Below, in pieces: positions 8,519 through 35,695 of a stretch of 64,000 nt of DNA. The notes under the pieces were generated by a model. The model was not told the origin of the DNA. It made no database searches and was given only the letters and a program-made list of their open reading frames with translations. This DNA is from a bacterium (GTDB taxonomy: Bacteria; Joyebacterota; Joyebacteria; Joyebacterales; Joyebacteraceae). The stretch is taken from the NCBI GenBank assembly GCA_025774935.1, contig JALGZK010000010.1, forward strand, positions 3,640-67,639. The letters are read 5' to 3'. Within the stretch, counting starts at the first letter, position 1. Every line of letters starts with the position of its first letter. A program made the translations under genes and the position numbers.

Positions 8519-9283
8519 CTAGAACTTGATGGCGAACCCGACCGTTGATCCGTCCGGCGTGAGTGCGGCGTAGAACCCGGACGGCTCAGCGCCGAGCTGG
8601 CTCACCGTGGGAGCCTCGCTGGTCGGCGGCGAGATCATGAAGGCGTCGACCACGTTGATCGCCCAGATTCCGATGGCCGCATACATCCAGACGTCGCGCT
8701 TCTGCTGCCAGTCCTCGGCGTCGCTGTATGTCGATTCCACCTCTTCCCACGCGAGCTCGATCTCCTCGATCTGGGTCGCGTCCAGGTAGTCGTCGTACGC
8801 CTCTTCGTACGTGTCCTTCGCGTCCACGTAGTTCGACTGCGTCCAGACGAGCCCGCCGAGCGCCACCGCCTCCGCGATGAAGAAGAAGGCTCCCTTCGCT
8901 GCCTGGTCGGCGTAGACCTGTCCCCATCCAGGGATGATGACCGAGCGGAATCCGGCCCCGGACGCGGTCTTCCGCGTGAGACGGATCTCGATCTCCTCCA
9001 CCGTGGTCGCCGACAGCACAGTGACCCCCGTCCACTCCTCGTACCCGGTCATGCGTGCTCGGATCTCGTACGTCCCGGAGAGACCGCGCTCGAGCCGCCA
9101 GGGAGTCACGCCCCGAAGGGCATGGTCTCCGAGGAGCTCGACCACGGCTCCCGAGGGAACCGAGGTGATGACTACGCCTCCCCCGGTCGCGTTCGCGGCC
9201 GGCTGCGCCGTGGAGTCCCCGACGAGGGGAAGCGCGAGCAGGAGGATCGCGAGGACTGGGAGACCCAGTGGTCTGAGAGACAT
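8519..9283 (-). CDS. PEGA-domain protein with DUF5683-like C-terminal region
   Basis: ORF 8519..9502; start at internal ATG (MSLRPLGLPVLAILLLALPLVG signal peptide) with AAGGAG about 6 nt upstream; PEGA-like VVITSVPSGAVVELLGDHALRGVTPW...GTYEIRARMTGYEEW, then IIPGWGQVYADQAAKGAFFF. Confidence 0.7.
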   Translation of the reverse strand: MSLRPLGLPVLAILLLALPLVGDSTAQPAANATGGGVVITSVPSGAVVELLGDHALRGVTPWRLERGLSGTYEIRARMTGYEEWTGVTVLSATTVEEIEIRLTRKTASGAGFRSVIIPGWGQVYADQAAKGAFFFIAEAVALGGLVWTQSNYVDAKDTYEEAYDDYLDATQIEEIELAWEEVESTYSDAEDWQQKRDVWMYAAIGIWAINVVDAFMISPPTSEAPTVSQLGAEPSGFYAALTPDGSTVGFAIKF

Positions 9284-9371
9284 GTGCGACTCCTTCTGGT
9301 CTGTCTGTCGGCCTCGTCCGCCGCTCTCGACCGGGACAACCGGCCAAAGGCGGGCCGCGGCGATTCTATGG

Positions 9372-10853
9372 TCACCCTTCGGTGCTGTCAAGGTCACCCG
9401 GACCGCGAGCGGCGCGCGGGCGGCTGTCGCTCGGGTCGAATCCCTCGGAACGCCCCGCTTCCCGCGGTTTTCTTCTTGCGAGTGACTTGAATCCTGTGAC
9501 ATCGATTTCGTATTTTCGAATGAGATCGTAGACGGTCGACCGGCTCACGCCGATCGAACGGGCCGCACGAGAGACGTTGCCGGCGGCCCGCCTGAGCGCG
9601 TCGACGACGATCTCGTGTTCCAGTGCGTCCTTCGCTTCACCGAGTGTCTGCGCGCGCCGTTCAGTCTCGGAGTCGAGCCCGAGGTCGGCCGCCGTGAGCC
9701 TGTGACCGGATGACATGACGACCGCGCGCTTGACCCGGTTCTCCAGCTCGGGGATGTTCCCGGGCCACTCGTGCGCCATCATCGCCCGCACCGCCGACCG
9801 GGTGAACCCCGACAACCTCCGCCCGTGCTCGGAGGCGCAGCGCTCGAGGAGGTCCTCCGCGAGAAGGGCGATGTCCTCGCCCCGCTCTCTGAGCGGGGGC
9901 AGCGTGACCGTCACCACGCTCAACTGATAGTAGAGGTCCTCCCGGAACCCGCCTTCCGCGACGACCTCTTCCAGATCGTCATCGGCGGCAGCTATGATCC
10001 TGACGTCCGCCTTGATCGGATCGTGCGGGCCTTTCCGCTCGATCTCTCCCGACTGAAGGAACGCGGAGAGCCGAGCCTGAAGATGCTGCGACAGCTCGTC
10101 GACTCCTACGACGAACAGCGTCCCGCCGTCGGCCTGTTCGATTCGGCCCGGCATCTTCTCCGCGCCGTTGAACGTCCCGTTCCCGTTGCCGTTTCCGAAG
10201 ACCTCGGCCTCGAGGTACTCGGACGGCGTCGCGCGCAGGTCGACAGCGACGAAGGGCCCTCGCGAGCGGCGACTCAGGTGGTGGATTCCTCGGGCGATGA
10301 GCTCCCTTCCGGTTCCTCGTTCGCCCACGAGAAGCACGCCGACTTCGGTCGCGGCGACCTTCCTGGCGGAGGAGAACACGTCCTGCATGGCCTCACAGGT
10401 CCCCGCCAGGCTGTCGAGGCGCTCGACGCCCGAGAGACGGTCCGGAACGGCGTCCGCGGCCGCCTCCAGCTCCTGGATCCTGAGCGCGCGCTTCACGAGG
10501 ACCCCGAACTCGTCGATGTCGAAGGGCTTCACGCAACAGTCGCACGCTCCGAGCTCGATGGCGCGGACGGCGAGGTCGCGGTCCCCGCTCGGGGCGACCA
10601 CGATGATCTTGAGCCTGAGCCTGGCCTTCCGCGCCAGCCGGAGGAGCTCGAGCTCCTCGCCGGAGCCCTCTTCGCCGCGCTCCAGCGTGCCGTCGAGCGT
10701 CATCACGTCCGGGCGGAACCGGCGGACGGCCTCGATGGCACCGGCGATCGTGTCGGAGGCGCACACGTCGTAGTCGCGCGCGAGACCTTCCCGGAGCAGC
10801 CTCCGGGTGACCTCGTCGCCTTCCACGATCAGGACTCTCTTGCGCTCGGACAC
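9372..10853 (-). CDS. prsR: Sigma-54-dependent response regulator (NtrC/AtoC family; PrsR-like PEP-CTERM-box regulator)
   Basis: 493 aa, GTG start with GGAGG upstream; receiver domain (VLIVEGDE...DVMTLDG), AAA+ sigma-54 interaction domain (LLVGERGTGRELIARGIH, GAFxGA-like FNGAEKMPG, EWPGNIPELEN), C-terminal Fis-type HTH (GNVSRAARSIGVSRSTVYDLIRK). Confidence 0.85.
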   Translation of the reverse strand: MSERKRVLIVEGDEVTRRLLREGLARDYDVCASDTIAGAIEAVRRFRPDVMTLDGTLERGEEGSGEELELLRLARKARLRLKIIVVAPSGDRDLAVRAIELGACDCCVKPFDIDEFGVLVKRALRIQELEAAADAVPDRLSGVERLDSLAGTCEAMQDVFSSARKVAATEVGVLLVGERGTGRELIARGIHHLSRRSRGPFVAVDLRATPSEYLEAEVFGNGNGNGTFNGAEKMPGRIEQADGGTLFVVGVDELSQHLQARLSAFLQSGEIERKGPHDPIKADVRIIAAADDDLEEVVAEGGFREDLYYQLSVVTVTLPPLRERGEDIALLAEDLLERCASEHGRRLSGFTRSAVRAMMAHEWPGNIPELENRVKRAVVMSSGHRLTAADLGLDSETERRAQTLGEAKDALEHEIVVDALRRAAGNVSRAARSIGVSRSTVYDLIRKYEIDVTGFKSLARRKPREAGRSEGFDPSDSRPRAARGPGDLDSTEG

Positions 10854-10956
10854 GATCCTCGGTTCCTCCAGCTACGGACCGGGCGTCGGGCGGGTCTTCC
10901 GCCCCGCGGCGCCCACACGACCCCTCCGGCTTCCCTGCGGTGCCCTGCCGGTGCTC

Positions 10957-12486
10957 CTACTCGGGCAGGGCCTCCAGCTGCCGGGCCGCCTCTTCCGCCC
11001 ACGGCTCTCCGGCGTACGTGCTCGCGATGTCCTCGAGCACCTCGCGCGCACTGGCGAAGTCCTCGAGCTGCCTCGTGTACAGATCGGCGGCCTGCAGCTT
11101 CATGATCGGCGCGTCCTCCGAGTCGGGCAGAAGCTCCGACGTCTCTAGGAGGATCCGCGCCGCCGCCTCCCACTTCTCCTGTCGGATCCGCGCGTCGACG
11201 AGGTACCCGCGGGCGGCAATCTCGGCCGACGTCCCGGCGTACTCCCTGATCACGCGCGTGTACTGCTCCACGGCCCGCTCGAGCGTGCTGGCCCCGACCT
11301 CCTCGTCACCGCTCTGGACGTACCGGTCGGACACGTGGATGAGTGCGCGGAGGCCGTACAGCGTGGTCGGGTACTCGCGCGCGAGAACGCTGTACTGCGC
11401 CGCCGCGCGATCCCAGTTCCCGGTCGCCTCGAAGCTCATCGCCAGGTACTGCATCGCCGTGGCGCTCACGACCTGCTCGGTCGTAAACTCGTCGATGACT
11501 CGTGAGAGGCGCCGCCGCGCGTCGTCGTGGCGCCCCGCGGCGAGGTCCTGTCTCGCGAGCGAGACGGCCGCCGTCGCGCCCGACACGTCGTCCCCGTACT
11601 CGCTCTCGACCCTCTCGTAGTACTCGCGCGCGAGACCGTTGCGCCCGAGTCTCGTCTCGTAGATCTCGGCCAGTCCGAGCCAGAGGGGCGCGCGGTTCTC
11701 GGGCGTTCCGAAGTCGCGGTCGAGCTCCTCGTACACCCTGGCCGCTTCCTCCCAGCGGTCCTCGAGCCCGTAGCTCTCCGCCGTGAGCGACGTCGCGAGC
11801 TCCGCGGTGGGCGATTCCGGCCACTCCGCGATCCAACGGGCGTAGTACTCCCTGGCACGGTCGGACCACGCCGCCGCCTCGGCCGCATCTCCCCGAGCGC
11901 GGTAGACCGCCGCGACCGACAGGGGCGCGCGGAGGATCCGCGTGTCGGGACTCGACTCCGGGTCGCGGGCGGGCTGCCAGTCCTCAATGAGCCCCGCGTA
12001 GACCGCCACGGCCTCGGGCCACCTGTCCTCGCGCCGCTCGACGGCGCCGAGCGCGAGCGTCGCATCGATCGCAAGGCCCCTCTCGAGCGCGTAGCTGTCT
12101 CGCACGGACGAGTAGAGGCGCCGCGCCTCGTCGAAGTCCCCGCGGTCCATCGCGAGCTGCCCGAGCGCGAGCCTGCTGTGCCCGGAGATGCGGGCGATCT
12201 GCCTGGCGACCTCGGAGACGCCCTCCGAATCCCCCTCGGGTGGCGGGAACGCCCGCGTGATGTTCCGGTACTCGTCCTCGACGCGGGCGCGCATCTCGTC
12301 GGTGTTCATACCGGGGTTGACGCTCACCGCGCGCATGAGGCTGCTCGCGCGCCAGGCCATTCTCTCGGCCTCGTACCTGTCCCTGATCTCCCTCGATGAT
12401 TCGCATCCGACGCACACGGCCACGACCACGATCAGGAGGACCGCCGCGAGCCGCCTTGCTGCGCGAGTGTCTCTCAGTGTCATCAT
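10957..12486 (-). CDS. TPR-repeat lipoprotein (PrsT-like)
   Basis: ORF 10957..13209; start at ATGATG 12481-12486 (MMTLRDTRAARRLAAVLLIVVVAVCVGC, lipobox) with GGAGGG upstream; TPR-like helical repeats throughout. The longer N-terminal extension in the track is Arg-rich and rejected. Confidence 0.75.
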   Translation of the reverse strand: MMTLRDTRAARRLAAVLLIVVVAVCVGCESSREIRDRYEAERMAWRASSLMRAVSVNPGMNTDEMRARVEDEYRNITRAFPPPEGDSEGVSEVARQIARISGHSRLALGQLAMDRGDFDEARRLYSSVRDSYALERGLAIDATLALGAVERREDRWPEAVAVYAGLIEDWQPARDPESSPDTRILRAPLSVAAVYRARGDAAEAAAWSDRAREYYARWIAEWPESPTAELATSLTAESYGLEDRWEEAARVYEELDRDFGTPENRAPLWLGLAEIYETRLGRNGLAREYYERVESEYGDDVSGATAAVSLARQDLAAGRHDDARRRLSRVIDEFTTEQVVSATAMQYLAMSFEATGNWDRAAAQYSVLAREYPTTLYGLRALIHVSDRYVQSGDEEVGASTLERAVEQYTRVIREYAGTSAEIAARGYLVDARIRQEKWEAAARILLETSELLPDSEDAPIMKLQAADLYTRQLEDFASAREVLEDIASTYAGEPWAEEAARQLEALPE

Positions 12487-13367
12487 GGCCGTCCCTCCCC
12501 TCCGGCGCCGGGAACGGCTGCGCCCGGCGCTTCGTCCTGCGTCAGGTGGAGGAAGAGCCGCGTGATGCCGCCGAGCGTCACGTAGGTCGCGAAGAAGAGG
12601 ACGACGACCCAGATCACCATGAGGAGCGGCACGAGCACCGGGGAGAACGTGTGCGCGATCGTGGCGCTCTGCCTCCACAGCCAGAGCGGCAGGATCTCGA
12701 GCGCGGCCGGCATGGCCACGAGCAGGAACGTGGCGACCGGGGTCCTCCCGAAGAGCACCAGGCTGCCTCCGACCGCCGCGCGCACGCTCCTTCCCGCGAG
12801 CACGATGTAGGGTGCCGTGTAGACGAGGACGGCCTGGACGAAGAGGACGACGAGGATCGTCGATCCCCTCACCACCCGGAACGTCCTCGGGCTCTCCTCC
12901 GCGAGATACCCGAAGAACGCGTAGGACGTCCTCGTCACGATCTGAGCGAGACCGACGGCGATCACCGCCGCGACCACGAGCGACCAGTACCTCGACGACG
13001 CCCGGCTCCACGCCTCCCCGAACCCCACCCGCCTCCGCTGATAGAAGGTGCCGAAGAGCACGATCCCCGTCGCCGCGGTCACCGCTCCCAGGAAGACGGC
13101 CAGGAACGGGTCGAGCTCGCCCAGCCCGGCCCTGAGCACGAGGAAGTTGTTCGGGTAGTGCAGCACGGACTCCCCGAACCGCCACCTCAGGAGCGGCACC
13201 ATGAACCACGAGACGACCGGGTACGCGAACCCGCCGATCGCGGCCAGGATCGCGGCCTGCCCCGCGGCGTAGATGGCGAACGGGAGGAGCGCCACGCGCC
13301 GCGAAAACGCCCTGAACGTCTCCACCCAGCCCCAGATGAGAGCATTGATCTGATCGATGAGGCCCAT
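12483..13367 (-). CDS. Uncharacterised polytopic membrane protein embedded in the exosortase operon
   Basis: 294 aa with about 7-8 hydrophobic helices; stop TGA overlaps the TPR-lipoprotein ATG (ATGA); no recognisable family motif. Confidence 0.65.
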   Translation of the reverse strand: MGLIDQINALIWGWVETFRAFSRRVALLPFAIYAAGQAAILAAIGGFAYPVVSWFMVPLLRWRFGESVLHYPNNFLVLRAGLGELDPFLAVFLGAVTAATGIVLFGTFYQRRRVGFGEAWSRASSRYWSLVVAAVIAVGLAQIVTRTSYAFFGYLAEESPRTFRVVRGSTILVVLFVQAVLVYTAPYIVLAGRSVRAAVGGSLVLFGRTPVATFLLVAMPAALEILPLWLWRQSATIAHTFSPVLVPLLMVIWVVVLFFATYVTLGGITRLFLHLTQDEAPGAAVPGAGGEGRP

Positions 13368-13463
13368 CAGAGTCCTTTCGAGAATCCCCTACGACGCGGC
13401 CCGCCCGGCGTCACGCCGCAGGCGGTCCCGCCGGTTCCCGGCGGTTCACGGCGCCCGGCCCCG

Positions 13464-14108
13464 TCAGCCCTCCCCGGCGAACACGAAGAGCTCCGGAAGG
13501 CGCACGAGCGCGGCCTCCGAGAAGTCCTTCAGCACCTCCATGGCGCCGTCGAAGTCACCGTCCCTCACGACGGTCGACACTCTAACGAACGCTCCGTAGG
13601 TCACGTTCGACACGATCCCCGACGCTGCCATCCGCGTCATGAACTTGTCGCGGTCGGCCGTCGCCAGATCCCCCGCCGTGTACCACCAGTAGACCGCGAG
13701 CCGGCGGACGCCCTGCTGCTCGACGAGCACCCAGTTGGCGTCGAAGCCGCCGTCTTTCCTCCAGAGGGGCTCGAGCCCCGAGTCGACGTCCGTCCATCCC
13801 TGGGACCGGTAGCATACGAGCGGCTCGTGCGCGCCGTACCGGTCGTTCTGATGGAAGATGATGACGAACCATATCCAGTCGCCCACGTCGTTCGTGTACC
13901 GCCGCGCCAGCGTGTCCGTCGCCTCGAGTTCCTCGTAGACGACGTCTTCGAACGACAGATCGACGCTGCGCCATCCTCCGAGCTGCGCCGGGAACGCTCC
14001 GAGCGAGCCCGCCTCGAGCTCCATCCTGTCGGGCGGGTTCAGGTGCACGTAGAAGGCGCCCGCCCCGAGGAGCGCGACCACGACGATCGTTCCGAATGAG
14101 GTCCTCAC
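13464..14108 (-). CDS. epsI: EpsI-family exosortase-associated protein
   Basis: 214 aa; N-terminal membrane anchor (IVVVALLGAGAFYV) then periplasmic domain; immediately downstream of exosortase with ATGA start/stop overlap at 14105-14108. Confidence 0.7.
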   Translation of the reverse strand: MRTSFGTIVVVALLGAGAFYVHLNPPDRMELEAGSLGAFPAQLGGWRSVDLSFEDVVYEELEATDTLARRYTNDVGDWIWFVIIFHQNDRYGAHEPLVCYRSQGWTDVDSGLEPLWRKDGGFDANWVLVEQQGVRRLAVYWWYTAGDLATADRDKFMTRMAASGIVSNVTYGAFVRVSTVVRDGDFDGAMEVLKDFSEAALVRLPELFVFAGEG

Positions 14109-15043
14109 GCGCCCCTCCCCTCAGGGGCGGTCTCTTCCCCCTCGCACGTCTCACATCTCAGGAGCTTCCGCACCACCACGAGTCCGACGAACGCGAACAT
14201 GAACAGCAGGAACCCTGAGAAGTCGTGGAAGAACCCGAGCGCGGCGTCGATGCCCCAGACGTGGGCGACGAGACAGAGCGCGGTGATCCTGAGCATGTTC
14301 CCGGCGATCGCGAGCGGCACGCTGACCGCGACGATGACGAGCCGCTTCCACGCGGCGCCCGCCGTCAGATACGCGAAGAGCGTTCCGAGGGCCACGAGCG
14401 CGATGAGCGACCTGAGCCCGCTGCAGGGGTCCGCGATCCGAAGCGACCCGGCCGGGACGTGGATCGTCATGCCCGAGCGGACGAGTGGCACGCCGAGCTT
14501 CGCGGCGAGTGCACTCCCTGAGCGCGCCGCGAAGACCTTGAGGTTGAAACTCAGCACGTTCATGAGGAACGGCGGCCACGGCAGCATGAACACGAGGAAC
14601 GCGAGCGGGAACCAGATCACCCTCGTCGCCCGACCCCCGAAGAAGAAGAGCGACAGGCCGAAGAGCATGAGGACGAACGAGTAGCCCTGCGTCATGAAGA
14701 TGCCCGCACGGATCGACACCACGTTCCCTACGAGCGCGAGAGCGATGATCGCGATGCCCCAAGCCGTCCCCGCCCTCACCGCATCCACGAACCTCTTCCG
14801 CTCGCGCCACAGGAGGAAGAGGACGATCGGCGGGATCAGGAACCCGTGCGAGTAGTTCGGCGAGGACATCCAGGTCCGCCAGAGCGTCGGGAAGACCGGG
14901 TAGTACACGATCGCAACGAGGACGGCCGCCACCGCGAAGCGCGCGAGCTGCCGCGCGGCGAGCGTCCCCCGAGGGGTCGCGCCCCCGCTACCGGTCGCGT
15001 TCCGGAGCTCCGCCCCGTCTCGTCTGTCGTTCCCGGTCGTCAA
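14105..15043 (-). CDS. xrtA: Exosortase (XrtA/EpsH family)
   Basis: ORF 14105..15388; polytopic membrane protein with exosortase-like motifs (ADPCSGLRSL, GNMLRITALCLV). Start assigned to TTG 15041-15043 with GGAGG about 5 nt upstream, overlapping the upstream TGA (TTGA); the Arg-rich 115 codons before it are rejected. Confidence 0.8.
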   Translation of the reverse strand: MTTGNDRRDGAELRNATGSGGATPRGTLAARQLARFAVAAVLVAIVYYPVFPTLWRTWMSSPNYSHGFLIPPIVLFLLWRERKRFVDAVRAGTAWGIAIIALALVGNVVSIRAGIFMTQGYSFVLMLFGLSLFFFGGRATRVIWFPLAFLVFMLPWPPFLMNVLSFNLKVFAARSGSALAAKLGVPLVRSGMTIHVPAGSLRIADPCSGLRSLIALVALGTLFAYLTAGAAWKRLVIVAVSVPLAIAGNMLRITALCLVAHVWGIDAALGFFHDFSGFLLFMFAFVGLVVVRKLLRCETCEGEETAPEGRGA

Positions 15044-24550: not shown

Positions 24551-24575
24551 GCCTTGCCTCCTGTGAAACCGTCTC

Positions 24576-28141: not shown

Positions 28142-29957
28142 CGAGCGTGAGTTCGTAGATCTCGACCACCGGGTTGTGGAACGAACGGCCGGGCCCGCGA
28201 TCGATCGACGGCATCGGGAACGTCTCGGCGAACCGCGCGACGCGGACGCCGTTCTCCCCGATCCAGTCGAGGAGCGTGCTCGGGCTGGGCGTGCCGGGCG
28301 GCTCCGCGCCCTCCATGGGCCGCCTCTGGTCCGCCTTGCTGGTGATCACGAGGTAGTCGGGGCGGATCTCCTCGATCGCCGCGATCATCGCGGCCTGGTC
28401 GTCGCCGGCCTCGGGGATCCGGAAGAGCTCCTGCCCCCAGCCGGAGCCGAAGATCCGGTACTGCGGGTGCCTCGCCCGACCGATGTCGAGCTCGAGCTCG
28501 TTGATGCGCCGCTTCGACGCGCTCCACGAGGAGACGCCCGTTTTGTCGGCTTCGATCGCGTGCTCGAGCTGCGCTGTCGCGCGGTTGAGCTCCGGCCCGT
28601 AGGACTCGACCACCACCGTGCTCCCCGCCTCGATGTTCTCCTCCACCCACTGCTTCGCCTGCGTGCGCGTGTCGGTCGCGTCGAGCGCGCGGACGAATCG
28701 GAGCGATGGCCACGCGGCGAACGCCAGCACGACGATCGCGACGGTCGTTGCCGCGGCCACCGCCGACGGGGCGCGCGACGTACCGCGTCCGCCGGGTGTC
28801 CGATCGAACGTCCCGAGCCCGAGCAGGAGGACGATCCCCGCGCCCGCCATGGCGGCGATCGCCGGGATCGCCGGCGTCACGTACGTCGAGCGCTTCACGG
28901 TGATCGCGATCAGGAACAGGAGGACGCAGACGACGTAGACGAGCGAGATGAGCGCGCCCGCGAGCCTGAGCTCGGGATGACCCGGTTCGAGCTTGTCGCC
29001 GGCCCTGCCGCGGCGCGCCCCCCGACCCTCGGCCACGCCGCGGCTGAGAGCGAGCACGAACCCGAGGACCGCGAGCAGGAGCACGGGGTAACCGACGCCC
29101 CGGCCGAGGCTCTTCCCGAACACTTCCCCGAGGCCTCGCCAGATCGAGCTCGCCTCCTGGGCGACGCCCGACTCGGACACCATCGTGAACTGCATGAGGA
29201 CGTCTCTCGAGAACTCGCCCGCGCTCACGACCGAGTACGGGGTTCCGATCACGAATCCGACGACGCACGCGACGATCGCGGCCGGGAGCACCCACGCCGC
29301 GATCGCCCGTCTCGAGACGAGGAAGACGAACGCCGTGAGGGTCCCCGCGAAGACGATCACTCCGGGGTACTTGGTGGACGCGGCCAGTCCGGCCAGGAGA
29401 CCCGAGAGAACGAGCTGGCTCGCCCGCCCGGAACGGACCGCGTAGAGAGCGAACAGGAGCGAGACCGACGCGAGGAAGGTCGTCGCCACGTCCGGAGTCG
29501 CGTAGTGCGAGTCGCGGACGTGAAGGAAGCCCACCGCGACCAGGGCCGCCGCGATGAGCCCGGCCGCCCTCCCGAAGGCCGTTCGGCCGAAGAGATACGT
29601 CGTCCAGACGGTGGCGACCCCGGCCGCCACCGAGACGTATCGTCCGATGAGCCAGAACGGCGTTAGGTCGGTGAGGTACGCGCGCGCGAGGTCGAGCGGC
29701 CCGCCGAACGTGCCGGCCGCCTTCCCGATGAGGTAGAAGACGGCGTAGAGGCCGAACACGAAGTACATCATCAGGGACGGCCACCTGAACCAGTGAGGGT
29801 TCATGTCGCCGGTGCCGAATCCGAGCGAGTGGATGAGGATCGAGCCCTCGTCGGGATGGTATGCGTGCGGGAGCCCCCACCCGATCCCCCAGATGCGGAT
29901 CCAGAGGGCGACCCCGATGATGACGATGAGGATGATCGTAGCGTTGCGTCGGCTCAT
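28068..29957 (-). CDS. GT39/ArnT-like (GT-C fold) membrane glycosyltransferase
   Basis: 629 aa; N-terminal polytopic domain with the HPDEG motif (AYHPDEGSILIH) typical of ArnT/PMT-type undecaprenyl/dolichyl-phosphate-sugar-dependent transferases; C-terminal soluble domain. Confidence 0.8.
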   Translation of the reverse strand: MSRRNATIILIVIIGVALWIRIWGIGWGLPHAYHPDEGSILIHSLGFGTGDMNPHWFRWPSLMMYFVFGLYAVFYLIGKAAGTFGGPLDLARAYLTDLTPFWLIGRYVSVAAGVATVWTTYLFGRTAFGRAAGLIAAALVAVGFLHVRDSHYATPDVATTFLASVSLLFALYAVRSGRASQLVLSGLLAGLAASTKYPGVIVFAGTLTAFVFLVSRRAIAAWVLPAAIVACVVGFVIGTPYSVVSAGEFSRDVLMQFTMVSESGVAQEASSIWRGLGEVFGKSLGRGVGYPVLLLAVLGFVLALSRGVAEGRGARRGRAGDKLEPGHPELRLAGALISLVYVVCVLLFLIAITVKRSTYVTPAIPAIAAMAGAGIVLLLGLGTFDRTPGGRGTSRAPSAVAAATTVAIVVLAFAAWPSLRFVRALDATDTRTQAKQWVEENIEAGSTVVVESYGPELNRATAQLEHAIEADKTGVSSWSASKRRINELELDIGRARHPQYRIFGSGWGQELFRIPEAGDDQAAMIAAIEEIRPDYLVITSKADQRRPMEGAEPPGTPSPSTLLDWIGENGVRVARFAETFPMPSIDRGPGRSFHNPVVEIYELTLGDAAEVMDAGTTDATEHAEEESGG

Positions 29958-30371: not shown

Positions 30372-30426
30372 CGAGCGCCTCCTCCACGAACCCGGACCGG
30401 CCGCGCGCCGCGGCCCCGGGCACGGA

Positions 30427-31179
30427 CTACGATGGTCTCCTGATGGCCTGACGTCCTGCGGCGACCATCACGAGGTATCGCCTGATGGTGTCCAGGATGT
30501 TCATCTTGCTCGCGCCGCCCTTCCTGTCGTACCTGAGGACGAGCGGCACCTCTGTCACGCGCGACGGGAGCTGCGCGAGCTTGAGAAGCACCTCGGCGGA
30601 CGAGACGAACCCGGACTCCGTGATGAGGTCGTCTCCGAAGACCCGGAATCCCGCCGCGAGGGTCGAACCCCTGTAGGCCCTGTATCCGCACGAGTAGTCC
30701 CGCACCCCGGGCACTCGCAGGAACGTCCTCAGGAGCATGCTCGCACCCTTGCTCAGGAAGCTCCTGAGAGGCGACAGCCCGACCTCCCTTCCGCCCTTCG
30801 CGTACCTGGAGGCGATGACGATGTCGTAGCCGTCATCGATCCGCTCGAGCATGTCCGGTATGATCGACGGATCGTGCGTGTCGTCGGTGTCCATGCCTAC
30901 GAGCACGCCGTCCTCGCCCGCGATGTCCTTGCCGCGAGCGAACCCGGTCCTGAGCGCCTCCCCGAGGCCGCGGTTGGTCTCGTGCGTCTCGACCGTCAGC
31001 TCGAGCCCGAGCTCCCGGGCGCGCTCCCTGGCCTTCTCCGCGGTCCCGTCTGAGCTCCCGTCGTCGACGAGGAGCACGCCCGCGGGACGGTCGACCCGGC
31101 CGAAGACGGCCGCGATCTTCTCCAGCAGGGGCCCGATCGCTCCGGACTCGTTGTATGCCGGCAGCATCACTACGAGCAT
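30427..31179 (-). CDS. GT2 polyprenyl-phosphate glycosyltransferase (ArnC/GtrB/DPM1-like)
   Basis: 250 aa; MLVVMLPAYNE start, VLLVDDGSSDGT (DxD-type), VGMDTDDTHDP; GAGGA Shine-Dalgarno upstream. Confidence 0.85.
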   Translation of the reverse strand: MLVVMLPAYNESGAIGPLLEKIAAVFGRVDRPAGVLLVDDGSSDGTAEKARERARELGLELTVETHETNRGLGEALRTGFARGKDIAGEDGVLVGMDTDDTHDPSIIPDMLERIDDGYDIVIASRYAKGGREVGLSPLRSFLSKGASMLLRTFLRVPGVRDYSCGYRAYRGSTLAAGFRVFGDDLITESGFVSSAEVLLKLAQLPSRVTEVPLVLRYDRKGGASKMNILDTIRRYLVMVAAGRQAIRRPS

Positions 31180-32333
31180 CGGTTCACGTTCCTCACTTTC
31201 GGCACGAAGTCCGCGGGGCGCGACGTCTTGCCGACGCCGAACGCGTGTTCGATGCCGTCGACGATCCTGACGGCAGCCCGCCCGTCGCCGTAGGGGTTCA
31301 CGGCGTTCGCCATCTCCGAATAGAGCCCGTCGTCGGTCAGGAGCGCGGAGATCCCCTCGGCGACAGACCTCTCGTCCGTCCCGACGATCCGCACGGTTCC
31401 GGCCTCGACCGCCTCCGGCCGCTCCGTCTCGTTCCTGAGCACGAGCACCGGCTTCCCGAGGGCCGGGGCCTCCTCCTGGAGGCCGCCCGAATCGGTCACG
31501 ACGATCGCGGCCTTCTTCATGAGGTCGACGAACGGCGCGTAGGGCATCGGATCGACGAGGTGGATCCGCGCGTGGCCCGAGAGGACCGCGCGCGCCGTCT
31601 CCTGAACGCGGGGGTTCAGGTGGACGGGATAGACGACCTCGATGTCACTCAGGTCGTCGGCCACGGTCCGGAGAGCGCGACAGATGTTCTCGAGCGGCTC
31701 CCCGAAGTTCTCCCGCCGGTGCGCCGTCACGAGGACGAAGCGTCCGCCCACCGGGACGCCGTGGGGCGGCGCCTTCGGGTCGCCGGCGACCTCGAGGAGG
31801 GCGTCTATGACCGTGTTGCCCGTGACGTAGATCGAGTCCGCGGATACGCCTTCGTCCAGGAGGTTCCGCCTGGCCTGCGCGGTCGGGGCGAAGTGGTAGA
31901 CCGACAGCGAGTCTGCGACCCTGCGGTTCATCTCCTCAGGAAACGGCGTGTAGAAGGAGTGCGTACGGAGTCCGGCCTCCACGTGTCCGACCGGGATCCG
32001 TCTGTAGAAGGCGGAGAGGGACGCCGCCATCGTGGTGGTCGTGTCCCCGTGCACCAGCACGAGGTCGGGGCTCTCGGAGGCGATGACCTCGTCCATGCCC
32101 TCGAGCACCGCTGAAGCCACGCGCCACGGGGGCTGGTTGTCGGTCATCACGCGCAGGTCGACGTCGGGAGCGATCGCGAAGAGATCGAGCACCTGGTCGA
32201 GCATCTCGCGGTGCTGGCCCGTCACGCAGATGCGCGACTCGACGCGCCCCTCGCGGGAGGCCAGCTCCTCGATGACGGGTGCCATCTTGATGGCTTCGGG
32301 ACGGGTCCCGAAAACCGAGAGCACTCGGACCAT
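31170..32333 (-). CDS. wecB: UDP-N-acetylglucosamine 2-epimerase (non-hydrolysing)
   Basis: ORF 31170..32693; start at ATG 32333 (MVRVLSVFGTRPEAIKMAPV) with GAGGAG upstream; conserved VTGQHREMLDQVL and HVEAGLRT motifs; the upstream 120 codons are Arg-rich and rejected. Confidence 0.9.
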   Translation of the reverse strand: MVRVLSVFGTRPEAIKMAPVIEELASREGRVESRICVTGQHREMLDQVLDLFAIAPDVDLRVMTDNQPPWRVASAVLEGMDEVIASESPDLVLVHGDTTTTMAASLSAFYRRIPVGHVEAGLRTHSFYTPFPEEMNRRVADSLSVYHFAPTAQARRNLLDEGVSADSIYVTGNTVIDALLEVAGDPKAPPHGVPVGGRFVLVTAHRRENFGEPLENICRALRTVADDLSDIEVVYPVHLNPRVQETARAVLSGHARIHLVDPMPYAPFVDLMKKAAIVVTDSGGLQEEAPALGKPVLVLRNETERPEAVEAGTVRIVGTDERSVAEGISALLTDDGLYSEMANAVNPYGDGRAAVRIVDGIEHAFGVGKTSRPADFVPKVRNVNRCS

Positions 32334-32338
32334 GCGTG

Positions 32339-34591
32339 CTACTCCTCTTCCTCCTCGAGCTCGCTGCTGTCGGACGTGTAGCCGTAGTAGCGGTAGTCGT
32401 AGTAGTACGGCAGCACGCGCTCGAGGTTGTTGACGACCACACCGAGCACGTTCTCCTTCTCGTCCCGCTGCAACTGAACGCCGCGTGTGACGACCTCTCT
32501 TGGAGTCACGCCGGCTCTGAGAACGATCACGACGCCGTCCACCTCGCCGCCCAGGATCATCGCGTCGGGCACGGGCAGGTTGGGCGCAGTGTCGAGGATC
32601 ACGGTGTCGAAGCTCGCGAGGAGCTCCGCCATGACGCGCGACCCGGGCATCGACTCGAGCAACCACGTCGGCTGATCTCGCCGGGTCCCGCACGGCAGGA
32701 CGAAGAGGTTCGGCAGCTTCGTCGGCTTGATGTCCGTGCCGAGGAGGTTTCCCCTCTCGAGAGCGTCGGAGAGCCCGGGCTTGGACGCCACGGCCATGAG
32801 GCGGTGCGCGCGGGGCTTCCTGAGGTCGCAGTCGACGAGGACGGTCCTGTGCCCGTAGTGCTTCGCGAGCGTGATGGCGAGCGAGGCCGCCGCGGTCGAC
32901 TTCCCCTCCCCCCTGTTCGCGCTCGTGACCAGGATCGACTTGGGGATGTCGCGCCCCACGCCGCGCGCGATCCTCCTCGCCATCCTCCTGAACTCGAAGC
33001 TGACCGCGGTCTCCCGCACCATGTGCCGGAGGAGCTCCGAGTCCCCGTTGGATGGCCCCGCACCCTTCTTCCTTACCTTCTTCGCGGCCTTCTTCTCCCT
33101 CGCCGAGATGCCTCGCAGAACGTCGCTGCTCGGGATGGTCGCCAGCACGGGAACGCCTACCGCGGCCTCGATCTCGTCGATGTTCTTGAAGGACGTGTCT
33201 CCCTGCTCCGAGACGAGGATGGCGGCGAGTCCGACGACGGCGCCTCCGAAGACCGACATCACGAGGATCATCAGCTTGTCGGGAGCGACGGGCGAGGTCG
33301 GGCGGACCGGGGGCTCGATGATCTCGAACCGCCCGCCGGCTCGCGCGGCCTCGAGAGCCTCCGTGATCTGGCCGGCTGCGGTCTGCTGTAGAAACGCCTC
33401 GTAAAGGGCCCGCGTCGACTCGACCTCCTGCTCGAGCCTCGTGATCTCGAGCTGGCTTCCCGCGGCCGACGCGCGGCCGCGCGTGTAGTCCCGCATGAAC
33501 CTGCCGAGCACCGACGCCCGCTCCGAGATCATCTGCTCCTCCACCTGAGCGATTCGGTACTGAGCGAACGCCTCCAGGATGTCCGGCGCGGCTCCCGGCA
33601 CGGCCGCCGCGGCCAGTCTCCTCGCCTCCTGGCGGTACTGGTCCTTCTTCTCGGCCTCGCTGACGTAGAGCGTCGTGATCTCGGGACCCTCCTGCGCCGA
33701 GAGTACGAGCACGGAGGCGACCTCCCGCTCGAGCTCGACGAGCTGCTCGGAGTACGACGTGAGGAGGTCGGACTCGAGCACCGAGAGCCTGTTGTACGAG
33801 TTCCCGGCGAGGCCCATCAGGTCATTTCGCTTCTCGTTGACCCGCTCGCCGGCGCGGTCGCGCTCGACGGTCGCCTGACTTATGAGGATGTCGACGCGCC
33901 CGACGTTCGTCGAGTTGACGGGGTTGGCCATCGAGTAGCCGACCGCCTGGCTCTCGCGGTAGTCCTTCAGGCGCAGTTCGGCGTCGTCGAGCTTCTGCCG
34001 GTAGATGACGAGCTGCTCGATGCTGAAGTCGTAGACCGCCCTGATCTCCTCGAGCTGCTCGCGGTTCGACGCACTCACGAAGGCGTTGGTGATGTGCTGC
34101 GCGAGGAGGGTCGCCCGGTCGGGATCGGTGTCCCGTATCACGACCTGGAACCCGTCGGTCGACGAACGGTGGACGCTGATCCGTCGACGGAGCCCCTCCA
34201 CGGCCGCCCCCTCCGCCAGATCCTGGACCGGGATCGCCGGATCCTCCGCGTACGTCTCCTCAGCCCACGCCTTGATCCCCGGATCCTCCGCGAGGTCGAG
34301 CGAGCGGACGAGTTCGACGAGGAACGCCCTGCTCTTCAGCTTCTCCTGAACTCGCGAGAGTTGCTCCTCCGCCGGCGACCGTCCGATGATCTGCGCGAGC
34401 CCCTCCGAGAACCTCTCCTGCACCTTGACGACTATCGTGCTCCTGGCCTCGTAGACCGGCGCGAGCGTCTGCGCGACCCCGAAGCCTGCGCCCCCGGCCA
34501 CGACGATCGGGACGATGAGTAGCCACTTCCGCCTCCACACGGCCCTCAGGAGCGCCATAACGTCGATAGTCTGTACCGGCTGGTCAGGCAT
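32339..34591 (-). CDS. Polysaccharide co-polymerase / tyrosine autokinase (Wzc/EpsG-like, chain-length determinant fused to BY-kinase)
   Basis: 750 aa; N-terminal TM (WLLIVPIVVAGGAGFGV), long coiled-coil periplasmic region, second TM, Walker A (SANRGEGKST), DTAP motif, C-terminal Tyr cluster YYYDYRYYGY. Confidence 0.85.
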   Translation of the reverse strand: MPDQPVQTIDVMALLRAVWRRKWLLIVPIVVAGGAGFGVAQTLAPVYEARSTIVVKVQERFSEGLAQIIGRSPAEEQLSRVQEKLKSRAFLVELVRSLDLAEDPGIKAWAEETYAEDPAIPVQDLAEGAAVEGLRRRISVHRSSTDGFQVVIRDTDPDRATLLAQHITNAFVSASNREQLEEIRAVYDFSIEQLVIYRQKLDDAELRLKDYRESQAVGYSMANPVNSTNVGRVDILISQATVERDRAGERVNEKRNDLMGLAGNSYNRLSVLESDLLTSYSEQLVELEREVASVLVLSAQEGPEITTLYVSEAEKKDQYRQEARRLAAAAVPGAAPDILEAFAQYRIAQVEEQMISERASVLGRFMRDYTRGRASAAGSQLEITRLEQEVESTRALYEAFLQQTAAGQITEALEAARAGGRFEIIEPPVRPTSPVAPDKLMILVMSVFGGAVVGLAAILVSEQGDTSFKNIDEIEAAVGVPVLATIPSSDVLRGISAREKKAAKKVRKKGAGPSNGDSELLRHMVRETAVSFEFRRMARRIARGVGRDIPKSILVTSANRGEGKSTAAASLAITLAKHYGHRTVLVDCDLRKPRAHRLMAVASKPGLSDALERGNLLGTDIKPTKLPNLFVLPCGTRRDQPTWLLESMPGSRVMAELLASFDTVILDTAPNLPVPDAMILGGEVDGVVIVLRAGVTPREVVTRGVQLQRDEKENVLGVVVNNLERVLPYYYDYRYYGYTSDSSELEEEEE

Positions 34592-34657
34592 GTACCCCCC
34601 GTGAGTTCGGATGTGCTCGTGGCATCGATGCCGTCCCGCTCGCTGCTCGAGAGCCGC

Positions 34658-35695
34658 CTACGGTGTCGTTGTGGTTGTCTGCTGCTGCTGCGCCGTCGCG
34701 ATCGCCGCGTTCCTGAACCTGCGGTCGTCGATCTCCCGCTCGATGCTGAGGTAGAGGAGGTAGGCGGTGAGCACCTGGGTCGTCGCGGTGAGAAGCGCGC
34801 CCGCGGCGTTCCAGAACTGGCCGCCGAACGTGTCCTGCGTCGATCCGATGACCACCCTGTCTCCCGCCCTCAGGAAGAACGGCTTCGGCGTGCCGCGTGT
34901 GAGCACGCTCTTGAGGTCCACCTTCGCGACGGCGTGCCCCTCGCCCGCGTCCATCACCACCGAGACCTCGTCCAGTCGCGCGTCGACCGTCGTGCCTCCC
35001 GCGATCGCGATGAGCTGGAAGAGGTCGATCCTGTCCGACGTCGCGTACGCCCCGGGCGTGTTCACCTCGCCGAAGATGTAGACCATGCCCGGGCCCGCGA
35101 GGCCTCCCCCGCCAATGATCGACGGGATCTCGATCGTGTCGCCGGGCATGAGCGCGGGGAGCGGCTGCGCCGTCTCGCCTCTCATGTACGCGCCGAGATC
35201 GACGTTGATGAGCTCGGGTCCGCCGATCGAGGGTCTCAGGATCGAGACGTTGGAGAGGTCGGCGCTCGGGAGCGCCCCTCCGGCGGAACTGAGGAGCTGC
35301 AGGATGTCGGGGATGGCCTCGAAGCTGTAGCGCCCGGGCGCGGTGACCTGTCCGGTCAGATAGACGGCTCTGCTGTTGAACTGCTCGACCGACACCGTTA
35401 CCTGGGTGGTCTCCCTCGTGTAGTCTCTCAGGCGCTGGACGATCTCCCTCGAAAGCTCGGACGGAGTGAGTCCGGCCGCCGTGAGCTCGCCGATCGGGGG
35501 GAGCGTGATCGTCCCGTTCGATTTGACGGTGACGTCCTGGTTCAGGTCGGAGTGACGCCAGACCGCGACCCTGAGCACATCGCCCGGGCCGATGACGTAC
35601 TCGATTCCCTGCTGCTGCGCCGGCGCCTCGACCGCAACGAGCGGCAGGATCATGGTAACGAGCAGGATCGATGACACGAGCTTTCTGCTGGACAT
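34658..35695 (-). CDS. Polysaccharide export protein (Wza/EpsE-like, Poly_export + SLBB domains)
   Basis: ORF 34658..35845; start at internal ATG (MSSRKLVSSILLVTMILPLVAVEAPAQ signal peptide); motif YVIGPGDVLRVAVW typical of Wza-like proteins; C-terminal helix AGALLTATTQVLTAYLLYL. Confidence 0.85.
   Translation of the reverse strand: MSSRKLVSSILLVTMILPLVAVEAPAQQQGIEYVIGPGDVLRVAVWRHSDLNQDVTVKSNGTITLPPIGELTAAGLTPSELSREIVQRLRDYTRETTQVTVSVEQFNSRAVYLTGQVTAPGRYSFEAIPDILQLLSSAGGALPSADLSNVSILRPSIGGPELINVDLGAYMRGETAQPLPALMPGDTIEIPSIIGGGGLAGPGMVYIFGEVNTPGAYATSDRIDLFQLIAIAGGTTVDARLDEVSVVMDAGEGHAVAKVDLKSVLTRGTPKPFFLRAGDRVVIGSTQDTFGGQFWNAAGALLTATTQVLTAYLLYLSIEREIDDRRFRNAAIATAQQQQTTTTTP

Follow-up and report, generated by a model that had tools for sequence, protein, structure and literature searches.

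The EpsH/exosortase proteins, PEP-CTERM proteins, exopolysaccharide loci and the PrsK/PrsR/PrsT regulators with sigma-54 have been connected in published work (PMC1569441), and retention of exopolysaccharide on cells has been tied to a PEP-CTERM protein (PMC9850573). The XrtA systems used here for comparison are the eps locus of Methylobacillus sp. 12S and the floc loci of Zoogloea and Aquincola, all from Proteobacteria with PrsK-PrsR-PrsT regulation. We analysed a 64,000-nucleotide stretch of DNA (the window) from an organism known only from a MAG. It carries a real cluster, found in uncultured Eisenbacteria-like bacteria, that makes and exports a surface polysaccharide and sorts a PEP-CTERM surface protein (Table 1); the genes present, their families and catalytic motifs, the synteny, the conserved promoters and the covarying RNA were observed directly. 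The reading that we favor, and hold to be probable, is that a Wzy-dependent exopolysaccharide pathway is coupled to PEP-CTERM protein sorting in a conserved chromosomal cluster of a clade related to Candidatus Eisenbacteria. The locus represents a known kind of system in a form specific to this lineage, and is organised in several transcription units. The label 'atypical' given in the first-pass annotation applies only in a limited sense. The locus of this lineage has the GT2/EamA/GT-C trio and the heparinase-like and CapK-like proteins as fixed components; every module, taken singly, is a known kind. Two parts are undescribed, a structured RNA leader and the membrane-protein family of g17.

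Table 1. Genes and other features of the locus, in window coordinates.
Feature	Position	Strand	Evidence
g1, Wza-like outer-membrane polysaccharide exporter	34658..35695	-	PF02563 84.6 bits; two SLBB domains
g2, Wzc-like co-polymerase fused to tyrosine autokinase	32339..34591	-	Wzz and GNVR domains
g3, WecB, UDP-GlcNAc 2-epimerase	31170..32333	-	TIGR00236 475.7 bits (cut-off 210)
g4, GT2, polyprenyl-phosphate sugar synthase-like	30427..31179	-	PF00535 76.8 bits
g5, ArnE/ArnF-like small EamA membrane protein, 119 aa	30012..30371	-	PF00892 36.9 bits
g6, GT-C fold glycosyltransferase (PMT_2; GT39/GT83-like)	28068..29957	-	PF13231 47.7 bits (cut-off 26.1)
g7, Wzy_C family polymerase/ligase	26597..28075	-	PF04932 56.6 bits (cut-off 31.7)
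g8, secreted heparinase II/III-like lyase or epimerase	24576..26600	-	PF07940 49 bits
g9, GT4 glycosyltransferase	23447..24550	-	PF00534 93 bits
g10, CapK/PaaK-like adenylate-forming enzyme	21931..23439	-	PF27533 CapK_C
g11, one ORF, two GT4 modules	19496..21832	-	TIGR03088 (stp2) 421.8 bits (cut-off 409)
g12, polysaccharide deacetylase	18225..19481	-	PF01522 93.6 bits
g13, GT4 glycosyltransferase	16893..18155	-	PF00534 and PF13692
g14, WcaI-like GT4 fused to monotopic phosphoglycosyl transferase (PGT)	15040..16896	-	PF02397 169.5 bits, residues 421-599
g15, exosortase, subtype unassigned	14105..15043	-	TIGR02602 200 bits (cut-off 105.6); PF09721 228 bits
g16, EpsI	13464..14108	-	TIGR02914 89.2 bits (cut-off 42.8)
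g17, conserved polytopic membrane protein	12483..13367	-	predicted CysZ/CTL-like fold; position after EpsI
g18, TPR lipoprotein (PrsT-like role)	10957..12486	-	several TPR Pfam families; lipobox-like motif
g19, sigma-54-dependent response regulator (PrsR-like)	9372..10853	-	TIGR02915 414 bits (cut-off 502.6)
g20, secreted PEGA + DUF5683 protein	8519..9283	-	PF18935 54.9 bits; PF08308 27.3 bits
Fn3a, Fn3-domain lipoprotein	6860..8473	-	Fn3 domain; lipobox LAGC
Fn3b, secreted, Fn3 domains and C-terminal FlgD-Ig domain	4333..6357	-	position conserved
PEP-CTERM protein	3154..3933	-	TIGR02595 26.5 bits (cut-off 16); PF07589 27.1 bits (20.7)
Sigma-54-type promoter, Wza	36055..36070	-	TGGCACAGGTGATGCA, ~360 nt upstream of Wza start codon
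Strong hairpin directly after Wza promoter	36009..36051	-	minimum free energy -37.5 kcal/mol, z-score -4.8
Sigma-70-type promoter, PEGA and Fn3a	9363..9391	-	TTGACA-17-TAGAAT, 11/12 consensus positions
Sigma-54-type promoter, Fn3b	6602..6617	-	TGGCATAGATTGTGCA at relatives' offset
Structured RNA leader, 145 nt	6399..6543	-	covariation, conserved position
Sigma-70-type promoter, extended -10 element, PEP-CTERM gene	4088..4117	-	conserved motif
GC-rich palindromic hairpin, 13 bp	3097..3125	.	just after PEP-CTERM stop codon

GC3 frame analysis and start-codon inspection placed 20 minus-strand genes one after another between 8519 and 35695, and the public annotation of the same contig has identical gene calls for the lower half. 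The co-directional array described earlier is real but does not hold 21 genes, because the two GT4 units at 19496-21832 form one uninterrupted ORF (each GT4 model matches two stretches of it). Co-directionality is no hallmark of the locus, because nearly every gene from window position 2 to about 58400 lies on the minus strand, and four-base start/stop overlaps are commonplace in bacterial operons. The feature that goes beyond chance is a gene order kept across many relatives with only ~50% protein identity. At this distance the order from Wza to GT4 and from GT4 to Fn3b is the same, with gltX-ddl as neighbours, and it is also kept in every locus that has an exosortase at least 57% identical and enough flank. 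Together with its radA-ispDF-gltX-ddl neighbours, the locus is syntenic in about 20 species-level MAGs, the named ones being Candidatus Eisenbacteria. The conserved locus extends down to 3097, adding two Fn3 proteins and the PEP-CTERM protein. This downstream continuation to the substrate gene had been overlooked.

The first-pass annotation can be read as describing a single 27-kb translationally coupled operon, with one transcript from Wza to PEGA. This would fit with all genes lying on one strand, with gaps of at most 103 nt, with the conserved promoter before Wza and with our finding no convincing intrinsic terminator on the coding strand of the array. It would also fit with seven overlapping junctions: ATGA at 12483 (g17/g18), 16893 and 26597 and TTGA at 15040, as had been read, together with GTGA at 14105-14108 (the GTG start of EpsI on the exosortase stop codon), which had been given as ATGA, WecB/GT2 (10 nt) and GT-C/Wzy (8 nt if Wzy starts at GTG 28075). 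An alternative Wzy start lies at 28141. For ATGA at 19496-19499 to be a start/stop overlap, the deacetylase would have to use its alternative start at 19499; the ATG at 19481 has the better ribosome-binding site (GAGGAAGGA) and is the start chosen in the public annotation. Nevertheless, we think a single transcript unlikely. Only 7 of the 19 junctions overlap, the co-directional run reaches far outside the locus, and the conserved unit runs beyond PEGA into Fn3a. Furthermore, because TTGACA-17-TAnAAT stands before the PEGA gene in each of 18 related loci (near-consensus here, between regulator and PEGA gene; -35 hexamer invariant, -10 near-invariant, with TAGACT in 2 loci), this last array gene opens a separate unit.

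Four promoters are in fact position-conserved, so the locus is not one transcription unit. The motif TGGCACA-N4-GATGCA lies 286-379 nt upstream of Wza in 4/4 relatives examined (5/5 loci overall), TGGCACAnnTTGTGCA is found in 10/11 related loci at 239-266 nt before the start of Fn3b (11/12 for the sigma-54 motif overall), and CTTGTC-N14/15-TGnTAnnAT precedes the PEP-CTERM gene in 8/8 loci, with TGnTAnTAT in 7/8. The PEP-CTERM gene is without the sigma-54 promoter that the proteobacterial model predicts. The hairpin after the Wza promoter recurs with a different sequence at the same place in L002 and L003 (alignment judged by eye); it may represent the terminator of ddl or else a stem-loop at the 5' end of the operon mRNA. 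With regard to the regulator, PrsR (TIGR02915) is indeed the best match of g19 and the architecture is right (REC, Sigma54_activat (AAA+) and HTH_8 domains), but the score is below cut-off. A histidine kinase was not found within the window; 7 sister loci have one and 9 others lack it. A plausible scenario is that the PrsR-like activator, encoded inside the operon, drives the sigma-54 promoters of Wza and Fn3b, and that the PEGA-Fn3a pair and the PEP-CTERM gene are each under their own sigma-70-type promoter.

The exosortase and EpsI calls were both upheld by scores above cut-off. The exosortase scores 196.5 bits against the XrtA model (cut-off 208) and has the three family motifs, C207-x-G, N249-x-x-R and H273-x-x-x-G, whose Cys, Arg and His are invariant across 23 homologues; in some relatives EpsI is fused to it. 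Only one PEP-CTERM gene is visible. It forms a single-gene unit behind a 399-nt intergenic region, its product ends in VPEPGTLILLGSGIVGMVGVVRRRRK, homologues 57-63% identical lie downstream of Fn3b in 7 metagenome contigs, and the hairpin behind it is likely a terminator. This protein is the likely candidate substrate, whose tail exosortase and EpsI would cut, delivering it to the cell surface or matrix. It might be argued that the exosortase cassette has no functional tie to the polysaccharide genes next to it, a protein-sorting cassette having come to lie beside, say, an O-antigen or capsule cluster, as more distant Eisenbacteria pair the exosortase-EpsI-g17-TPR cassette with other glycan genes and methanolan production was unaffected by epsH disruption in Methylobacillus (PMC1569441). 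We give this little credence: the stop codon of the initiating GT4-PGT gene and the start codon of the exosortase gene overlap, the two genes are neighbours in every close relative and in most of those with 40-50% exosortase identity, and exosortases generally sit within exopolysaccharide loci (PMC1569441).

Profile searches bore out, at the family level, the earlier calls of Wza, Wzc, WecB, GT2, ArnE/F-like, PMT_2, Wzy_C, heparinase II/III, GT4, deacetylase, GT4-PGT, TPR, PEGA and CapK/PaaK-like adenylating proteins; the specific deacetylase model TIGR03006 gave no match. We infer the pathway steps from the known chemistry of each family, and all biochemical steps, substrates and regulatory wiring are to be read as predictions from sequence. 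WecB would supply UDP-ManNAc. The repeat unit would be started on undecaprenyl phosphate by the PGT domain of g14, the putative initiating enzyme (motifs KLRTM, DE and VGPRP), extended by five GT4 modules (the g14 N-terminal half, g13, both g11 halves and g9) and tailored by the deacetylase and the CapK-like enzyme (E = 3.5e-23 to PaaK structures; gene missing in sister loci L029 and L033/L108). Polymerisation and export would proceed via Wzy_C, Wzc (TIGR01007 119.8 bits, cut-off 108; C-terminal tyrosine cluster YYYDYRYYGY) and Wza (best NCBIfam match TIGR03027, under cut-off). In a parallel branch, the GT2 (best NCBIfam matches dolichyl-P hexose transferase, PpgS and ArnC, each under cut-off) would make a polyprenyl-phosphate monosaccharide, for which the EamA protein is the candidate flippase (ArnF model 60 bits, cut-off 99; ~80% identity in relatives). 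The GT-C enzyme would then transfer the sugar in the periplasm onto polymer or protein; its first transmembrane segment is followed by an acidic motif, HPDEGS, and it has about 56 full-length orthologue clusters (45-55% identical) and zero sequence matches among solved structures. The heparinase-like enzyme may trim or epimerise the polymer; it matches heparinase II structure 2FUQ (E = 8e-42), its orthologues contain a DSE-like_N domain and its hydrophobic N-terminus is signal-peptide-like as judged by eye.

The Wzy-dependent pathway is incomplete as encoded here, because a Wzx-type flippase was not found in the locus, the remaining window or the syntenic loci by profile searches and annotations. 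This would be consistent with a system devoted mainly to protein O-glycosylation, in which the Wzy_C protein as an O-oligosaccharyltransferase moves a lipid-linked oligosaccharide, the PMT-like trio adds single sugars, free polymer is secondary, and the PEP-CTERM and Fn3 proteins are the targets, afterwards sorted by the exosortase. The Wzy_C family has O-oligosaccharyltransferases among its members, a weak TfpM match was seen, and in TIGRFAMs an 'O-glycosylation ligase' family of Wzy_C proteins that accompany exosortases has been put forward; PMT_2 and PMT are protein-mannosyltransferase Pfam families, and the 3' end of the locus encodes three conserved secreted proteins. However, the TfpM match is 22 bits against a cut-off of 600, the PMT model reaches 20.3 bits (gathering score 22.7), and Asp and Gly, not Ser and Thr, abound in the PEP-CTERM protein. 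Moreover, Wza and a full Wzc with a tyrosine-cluster kinase indicate export of a high-molecular-weight polymer. We therefore find this alternative quite improbable and retain the exopolysaccharide pathway coupled to protein sorting.

Fn3a is a conserved locus member (relatives 53-66% identical), and the RNA leader, in 28 instances, always lies between Fn3a and Fn3b where flanking genes are identifiable. It shows compensatory changes at 12 base pairs and 93.9% of cells paired, as opposed to at most 52% in slid controls, and had zero matches in Rfam. The other undescribed part, g17, has zero matches in Pfam and NCBIfam and 622 representatives in a 1.84-billion-protein library, and lies after EpsI in 22/22 and 32/35 exosortase loci of this type. 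It appears from these searches to belong to an undescribed membrane-protein family. Compared with the CysZ and choline-transporter-like (SLC44, Pns1) membrane fold, its sequence identity is only 5-12% and, unlike those proteins, it lies outside every Pfam or NCBIfam family. Its neighbours are always a TPR protein (plus GAF kinase and sigma-54 regulator) and usually exosortase-EpsI, and never sulfur or choline genes.

As in the XrtA (EpsH) system, there is an exosortase with Cys/Arg/His motifs and adjoining EpsI, a locus with GT4s, a deacetylase, a chain-length determinant and a sugar transferase, a TPR lipoprotein with a sigma-54 activator, and a PEP-CTERM gene standing alone behind a long intergenic region. 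Unlike in that system, the XrtA, PrsR, PrsT (29 bits only for g18, TIGR02917) and pepcterm_* (exporter, chain-length, kinase) models all stay under their curated cut-offs in profile searches, stp2 being the one subtype model to pass, and PrsK is absent from the window. The sigma-54 promoters lie before the polysaccharide operon and an Fn3 gene and a sigma-70-type promoter at the PEP-CTERM gene, the reverse of Aquincola (PMC9850573), and g17, PEGA/DUF5683, two Fn3 proteins, the GT-C trio and the heparinase-like and CapK-like proteins are extra fixed parts. With the Wzx/Wzy group 1 capsule and colanic acid pathway (Wza-Wzc, WcaJ/WbaP, WcaI, Wzy) the locus shares an outer-membrane Wza-like exporter, the Wzc tyrosine cluster, a phosphoglycosyl transferase, WcaI-like GT4s and a Wzy_C protein, but it is without Wzx and Wzb phosphatase, and the role of initiating transferase falls to a small monotopic domain that shares its polypeptide with a GT4. 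Finally, as in the ArnC/ArnE-F/ArnT, GtrB/GtrA/Gtr-type and Ppm1/PMT three-component systems of periplasmic glycosylation, genes for a GT2 polyprenyl-phosphate sugar synthase-like protein, a small 4-helix EamA protein and a GT-C protein are consecutive; here, however, the trio proteins are all under the curated cut-offs of the named enzymes and their genes lie inside an exosortase polysaccharide operon.

Exosortase systems are widespread among environmental bacteria and, to our knowledge, it is still unknown what their substrates become attached to and which partners are needed. The exosortase named in the first-pass annotation of the present locus (g15) is borne out both by profile searches and by motifs. 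It scores 200.2 bits on TIGR02602 (cut-off 105.55), 227.7 bits on PF09721 (cut-off 25.7), with a match spanning model positions 2-251 of 254, and 69.4 bits on the TIGR04178 signature (cut-off 23), and the three family-defining motifs Cys-x-Gly, Asn-x-x-Arg and His-x-x-x-Gly (Haft et al. 2006, PMC1569441) occur as C207-S-G, N249-M-L-R252 and H273-D-F-S-G277, invariant across 23 homologues. The protein lies below the cut-off of the XrtA subtype (TIGR03109; 196.5 bits versus 208) and, with scores like that for XrtA, below those of XrtD (197 versus 400) and XrtW (195 versus 425). EpsI (g16) was likewise correctly named, being adjacent to the exosortase, whose stop codon its start codon overlaps, and scoring 89.2 bits on TIGR02914 (cut-off 42.8) and 108 bits on PF11984. 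Some members of the clade encode the two as a single fused protein of about 530-540 aa (P0203-P0209; 10001-11596 in locus L006), whereas in the window they are separate, overlapping genes.

The obvious candidate substrate of this exosortase is the PEP-CTERM protein encoded 3' of the Fn3-domain proteins Fn3a and Fn3b (see table). Its tail, VPEPGTLILLGSGIVGMVGVVRRRRK, satisfies both PEP-CTERM models (TIGR02595, 26.5 bits versus 16; PF07589, 27.1 versus 20.7). Homologues with 57-63% identity are found just 3' of Fn3b in seven metagenome contigs and, therefore, we consider the gene to be part of the conserved locus. A rhomboid-family protease is encoded about 3 kb upstream of the locus (38683-39429, minus strand); given its weak rhombosortase match (32 bits versus a cut-off of 84), it is probably a generic rhomboid.

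The exosortase gene had been placed in a single co-directional array of 21 genes between 8519 and 35695. This observation was essentially right and the array is real, with the small corrections that 20 genes are called in this interval, the double GT4 at 19496-21832 being one ORF with two GT4 modules, and that not all of the reported start/stop overlaps stand. Four-nucleotide overlaps are present at five junctions (ATGA at 12483, 16893 and 26597, TTGA at 15040 and GTGA at 14105), the last having been reported as ATGA, while the ATGA at 19496 overlaps only if translation begins at the less likely of two candidate start codons. Two further junctions overlap by 8 and 10 nt, the remaining gaps between array genes are 5-103 nt, and scans of junctions and consensus sequences found no convincing intrinsic terminator on the coding strand of the array. 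Exact protein matching puts the window on contig JALGZJ010000006.1 of the metagenome-assembled genome GCA_025774965.1. Gene calls in the lower half are identical to the public annotation, and the gene count of the upper half is the same in relatives. G+C content is 66-70% across the whole window and, by third-position GC, the minus strand holds nearly all real genes between position 2 and about 58400 (for the genes at 56-64 kb the check was by Pfam only). The strand bias over 2-58405 is extreme, and cumulative GC skew declines steadily, as expected for a window inside a single replichore.

The interpretation placed on the array fared less evenly: the gene identities stand, the array is not a single one and the boundaries drawn were too narrow, since Fn3a, Fn3b and the PEP-CTERM gene also belong to the conserved locus. 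The upstream end is ddl (36080-37132), beyond which lie gltX, the rhomboid protease, two ORFs without family matches, ispDF and radA. No Pfam or NCBIfam match was obtained for the three ORFs listed between the protease and radA.

Coordinates of features in and around the locus
Feature	Position	Strand	Remarks
PEP-CTERM protein	3154-3933	-	259 aa, signal peptide; 5' intergenic region 399 nt
Fn3b, secreted protein with Fn3 domains and FlgD-Ig domain	4333-6357	-	downstream of PEGA
Leader, 145 nt	6399-6543	-	between Fn3b sigma-54 promoter and Fn3b start codon
Sigma-54 motif, Fn3b	6602-6617	-	239-266 nt upstream of Fn3b in 11 of 12 loci
Fn3a, lipoprotein with Fn3 domains	6860-8473	-	downstream of PEGA
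TTGACA-17-TAGAAT, near-consensus promoter	9363-9391	-	regulator/PEGA interval; conserved in 18 of 18 loci
Sigma-54 motif TGGCACAGGTGATGCA	just 3' of ddl stop codon	-	precedes Wza
ORF	40912-42309	-	between rhomboid protease and radA; good codon bias
ORF	42361-43836	-	between rhomboid protease and radA; good codon bias
ORF	45071-46060	-	between rhomboid protease and radA; good codon bias

NCBIfam and Pfam searches supported the names of the polysaccharide genes at the family level. Above cut-off were WecB (TIGR00236), the tyrosine-autokinase domain (TIGR01007) and the Pfam domains Poly_export, Wzz/GNVR, GT2, EamA, PMT_2, Wzy_C, Hepar_II_III_C, Polysacc_deac_1, Bac_transf, Sigma54_activat, PEGA and DUF5683; the pepcterm_export, pepcterm_ChnLen, pepcterm_TyrKin, ArnF and HepB models remained below their curated cut-offs. 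The double GT4 protein (g11) reaches the stp2 model TIGR03088, an XrtA-system glycosyltransferase (421.8 bits versus 409.05; best stretch residues 13-374). The deacetylase (g12) gave no match to TIGR03006, the model for PEP-CTERM locus deacetylases, at E <= 0.001 and was recognized only by the generic PF01522. Components of a Wzx/Wzy pathway are present in the form of an initiating phosphoglycosyl transferase (PF02397; motifs KLRTM, DE and VGPRP), Wzy (PF04932) and an OPX exporter (PF02563), and Wzc has the make-up of a PCP-2a/BY-kinase, with Wzz, GNVR and TIGR01007 domains and a C-terminal tyrosine cluster, YYYDYRYYGY. As for a MOP-family Wzx flippase, no Polysacc_synt, MurJ or MATE match was found in the 20 genes, the other searched ORFs of the window or the syntenic loci.

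Three of the remaining enzymes can be described more closely. The GT-C protein (g6), of CAZy GT39/GT83-like type, matches PF13231 (PMT_2; 47.7 bits versus 26.1) and has an acidic HPDEGS motif at residues 34-39, after the first membrane helix; it falls short of PF02366, PMT proper (20.3 bits versus 22.7), and a structure-sequence search found no solved structure related to it in sequence. The heparinase-like protein (g8) matches PF07940 (49.1 bits versus 24) and, over residues 361-663, heparinase II (2FUQ, E = 8e-42), and scores well under the HepB equivalog (173 bits versus 600). The adenylating enzyme (g10) matches PaaK structures. An arylsulfotransferase (ASST)-like protein is encoded among housekeeping genes at 47573-48997 (minus strand), and an ASST gene is also found in a distant GT-C locus, L004.

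Orthologues of the GT-C protein (about 56 full-length clusters, 45-55% identity) and of the exosortase (more than 100 clusters, 57-75% identity) are, where named, from Candidatus Eisenbacteria, and for at least 12 GT-C/exosortase pairs of matches the longest contigs are equal in length, suggesting that the two share contigs. Gene order from Wza to Fn3b is the same in the loci that were read directly (L002/L005, L003, L006, L107 and L108), and in many cases ispDF, gltX and ddl are again the neighbours. Scanning one genome per species yielded 522 exosortase relatives, and 80 of them were retained; names among the relatives include Candidatus Eisenbacteria and Candidatus Effluviviaceae. In a tblastn matrix, all loci that have sufficient flank and an exosortase at least 57% identical carry the whole lower half, g8 to Fn3b, with CapK missing only from L029 and L033. 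More distant Eisenbacteria (40-50% identity) keep exosortase, EpsI and the membrane protein g17, often together with the TPR, PEGA and Fn3 genes, and differ in their glycan genes. Comparative synteny thus argues that the locus is a stable chromosomal trait of a single clade rather than an island. None of the papers searched joins Eisenbacteria with exosortase or exopolysaccharide, and we know of no cultured member of this phylum; the locus would provide a first functional handle on its surface biology.

The regulatory genes resemble those of known PEP-CTERM systems to varying degrees. Naming g19 PrsR was justified in that this is its best-scoring family and in that its architecture is REC, sigma-54 AAA+ and Fis-type HTH (PF00072, PF00158 and PF02954 all match), but its score is under the equivalog cut-off (TIGR02915, 414.4 bits versus 502.6). 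The TPR protein g18, 509 aa long with a lipobox-like signal, is far below the PrsT model (TIGR02917, 29 bits versus 312), and the PrsK tandem kinase (TIGR02916) is absent from the window, where the gap between the TPR and regulator genes is only 103 nt (10854-10956). In seven sister loci (L006, L015, L023, L025, L029, L033 and L034) a GAF histidine kinase of about 700 aa is encoded at this place; nine others, like the window, have none. In three of the kinase-less loci (L019, L022 and L028) the regulator match starts only at about residue 146, past the receiver domain, which may have been lost or replaced there.

An element of another kind is the candidate structured leader of Fn3b. Conservation of this block greatly exceeds that of the flanking proteins, and small indels inside it exclude a coding role. 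RNAalifold predicts a multi-branched fold, and a covariance model found 28 instances. Of these, 12 are in loci outside the model-building set, and loci fetched earlier contributed 6 more, again at the same site. Wherever flanking genes are identifiable the instance is at the Fn3a/Fn3b site, and no locus has a second copy. Support for the fold is as follows: (i) 93.9% of cells pair across 27 distinct sequences, compared with at most 52% when partners are slid; (ii) compensatory changes occur in 12 base pairs and (iii) none of 500 shuffles reaches the observed values. Helices 1, 2 and 4 carry this support. The abundance of G-U pairs fixes the strand of the RNA as that of the genes. The leader lies clear of the ribosome-binding site, and no U-run comes after it. 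Rfam gave no match at gathering scores over the whole window and none of relevance at E <= 10 on the region. Since these sequences span a narrow phylogenetic range and their alignment was fitted to the model, what the locus supplies is a candidate new structured RNA.

Profile searches assigned g17 (12483-13367, minus strand) to no Pfam or NCBIfam family; membership of a described family was rejected, the matches being confined to weak ones to GPDPase_memb (PF10110) in two of ten very distant members. A profile built from 20 homologues retrieved 622 representatives from a library of 1.84 billion proteins, nearly all full length at 270-300 aa. In an HMM scan of the fetched loci, g17 directly follows EpsI in 22 of 22 loci whose exosortase is at least 57% identical, in 32 of 35 at 40-50% and in 1 of 11 below 40%; it is a near-obligate neighbour of the Eisenbacteria-type exosortase-EpsI pair, with a predicted CysZ/CTL-like fold. 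The TPR gene is always next, the GAF kinase and sigma-54 regulator often then follow, and this context is seen even in one genome without a nearby exosortase. We favor, as most likely, a sensory or adaptor role for g17 with the TPR-kinase-regulator module. Transport of a lipid-linked glycan is less likely, and we retain it because none of these loci has a Wzx. Sixteen ORFs (477-644 aa) seemed to join a g17 domain to the upstream protein, but fusion to EpsI was rejected: in the L060 example the N-terminal half is an out-of-frame, stop-free translation of high-GC sequence, and 14 others, all beginning at the end of the exosortase gene, were taken as the same artefact. One member, P0285 (from L008, a polysaccharide locus), looks truly fused to a WecA-like enzyme.

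It is conceivable, and in our view somewhat improbable, that the locus holds two novel kinds of component, the leader being a ligand- or protein-responsive regulatory RNA for a surface Fn3 protein and g17 a core subunit of the exosortase machinery. As a core subunit, g17 could stand in for Wzx as the missing carrier of the lipid-linked glycan, or serve as a membrane sensor that signals to the TPR-kinase-regulator module. The locus is compact and strongly conserved and links one candidate PEP-CTERM substrate, exosortase and EpsI, g17, a TPR protein and a sigma-54 activator, a small defined gene set for heterologous reconstitution.

With regard to transcription, the idea of a single array failed on a conserved promoter that separates the PEGA gene from the regulator in all 18 loci. 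The best reading of the promoter motifs is that there are four predicted units: Wza to the regulator (19 genes), PEGA with Fn3a, Fn3b, and the PEP-CTERM gene. The sigma-54 motif before Wza recurs 286-379 nt upstream of that gene in four of four relatives examined, and consensus scans found no other internal promoter or terminator on the coding strand of the 19-gene stretch. Ahead of the PEP-CTERM gene, an extended -10 promoter is present in eight of eight loci. A sigma-54 promoter or proteobacterial 'PEP-CTERM box' was sought there and rejected, none being found in the window or in seven homologous loci; upstream of 3933 there is no GG-N10-GC site and a conserved sigma-70-type promoter instead.

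Several other elements were noted. A 13-bp GC-rich hairpin (36009-36051, minus strand) immediately follows the sigma-54 -12 element, and L002 and L003 have a hairpin of other sequence at the matching position; the hairpin in the window may terminate ddl or form a 5' stem-loop in the operon mRNA. The long Wza leader contains conserved blocks, TGTCGGnAAnGGCAACAGTTC...TGTTGACCG (35867-35907, minus strand), which L002 and L003 share and which include an AACAG/CTGTT inverted repeat. Two sigma-54-like motifs, TGGCACGATTGGTGCA and TGGCTGTCAAGTTGCT, are intergenic at 60620-60707 (minus strand), upstream of a SelR/MsrB gene (60003-60596).

By its gene content, the system would work like an XrtA/PEP-CTERM exopolysaccharide locus, outside the curated XrtA, PrsR and PrsT subtype definitions, and we class it as a lineage-specific variant of the known exosortase/exopolysaccharide system. 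In Proteobacteria the sigma-54 site is found at the PEP-CTERM genes (PMC1569441), and the polysaccharide genes of Aquincola do not depend on RpoN (PMC9850573). The proteobacterial logic of sigma-54 control of PEP-CTERM genes is, then, not universal: in the window the pattern is reversed, with sigma-54 sites before Wza and Fn3b and a sigma-70-type promoter before the PEP-CTERM gene.
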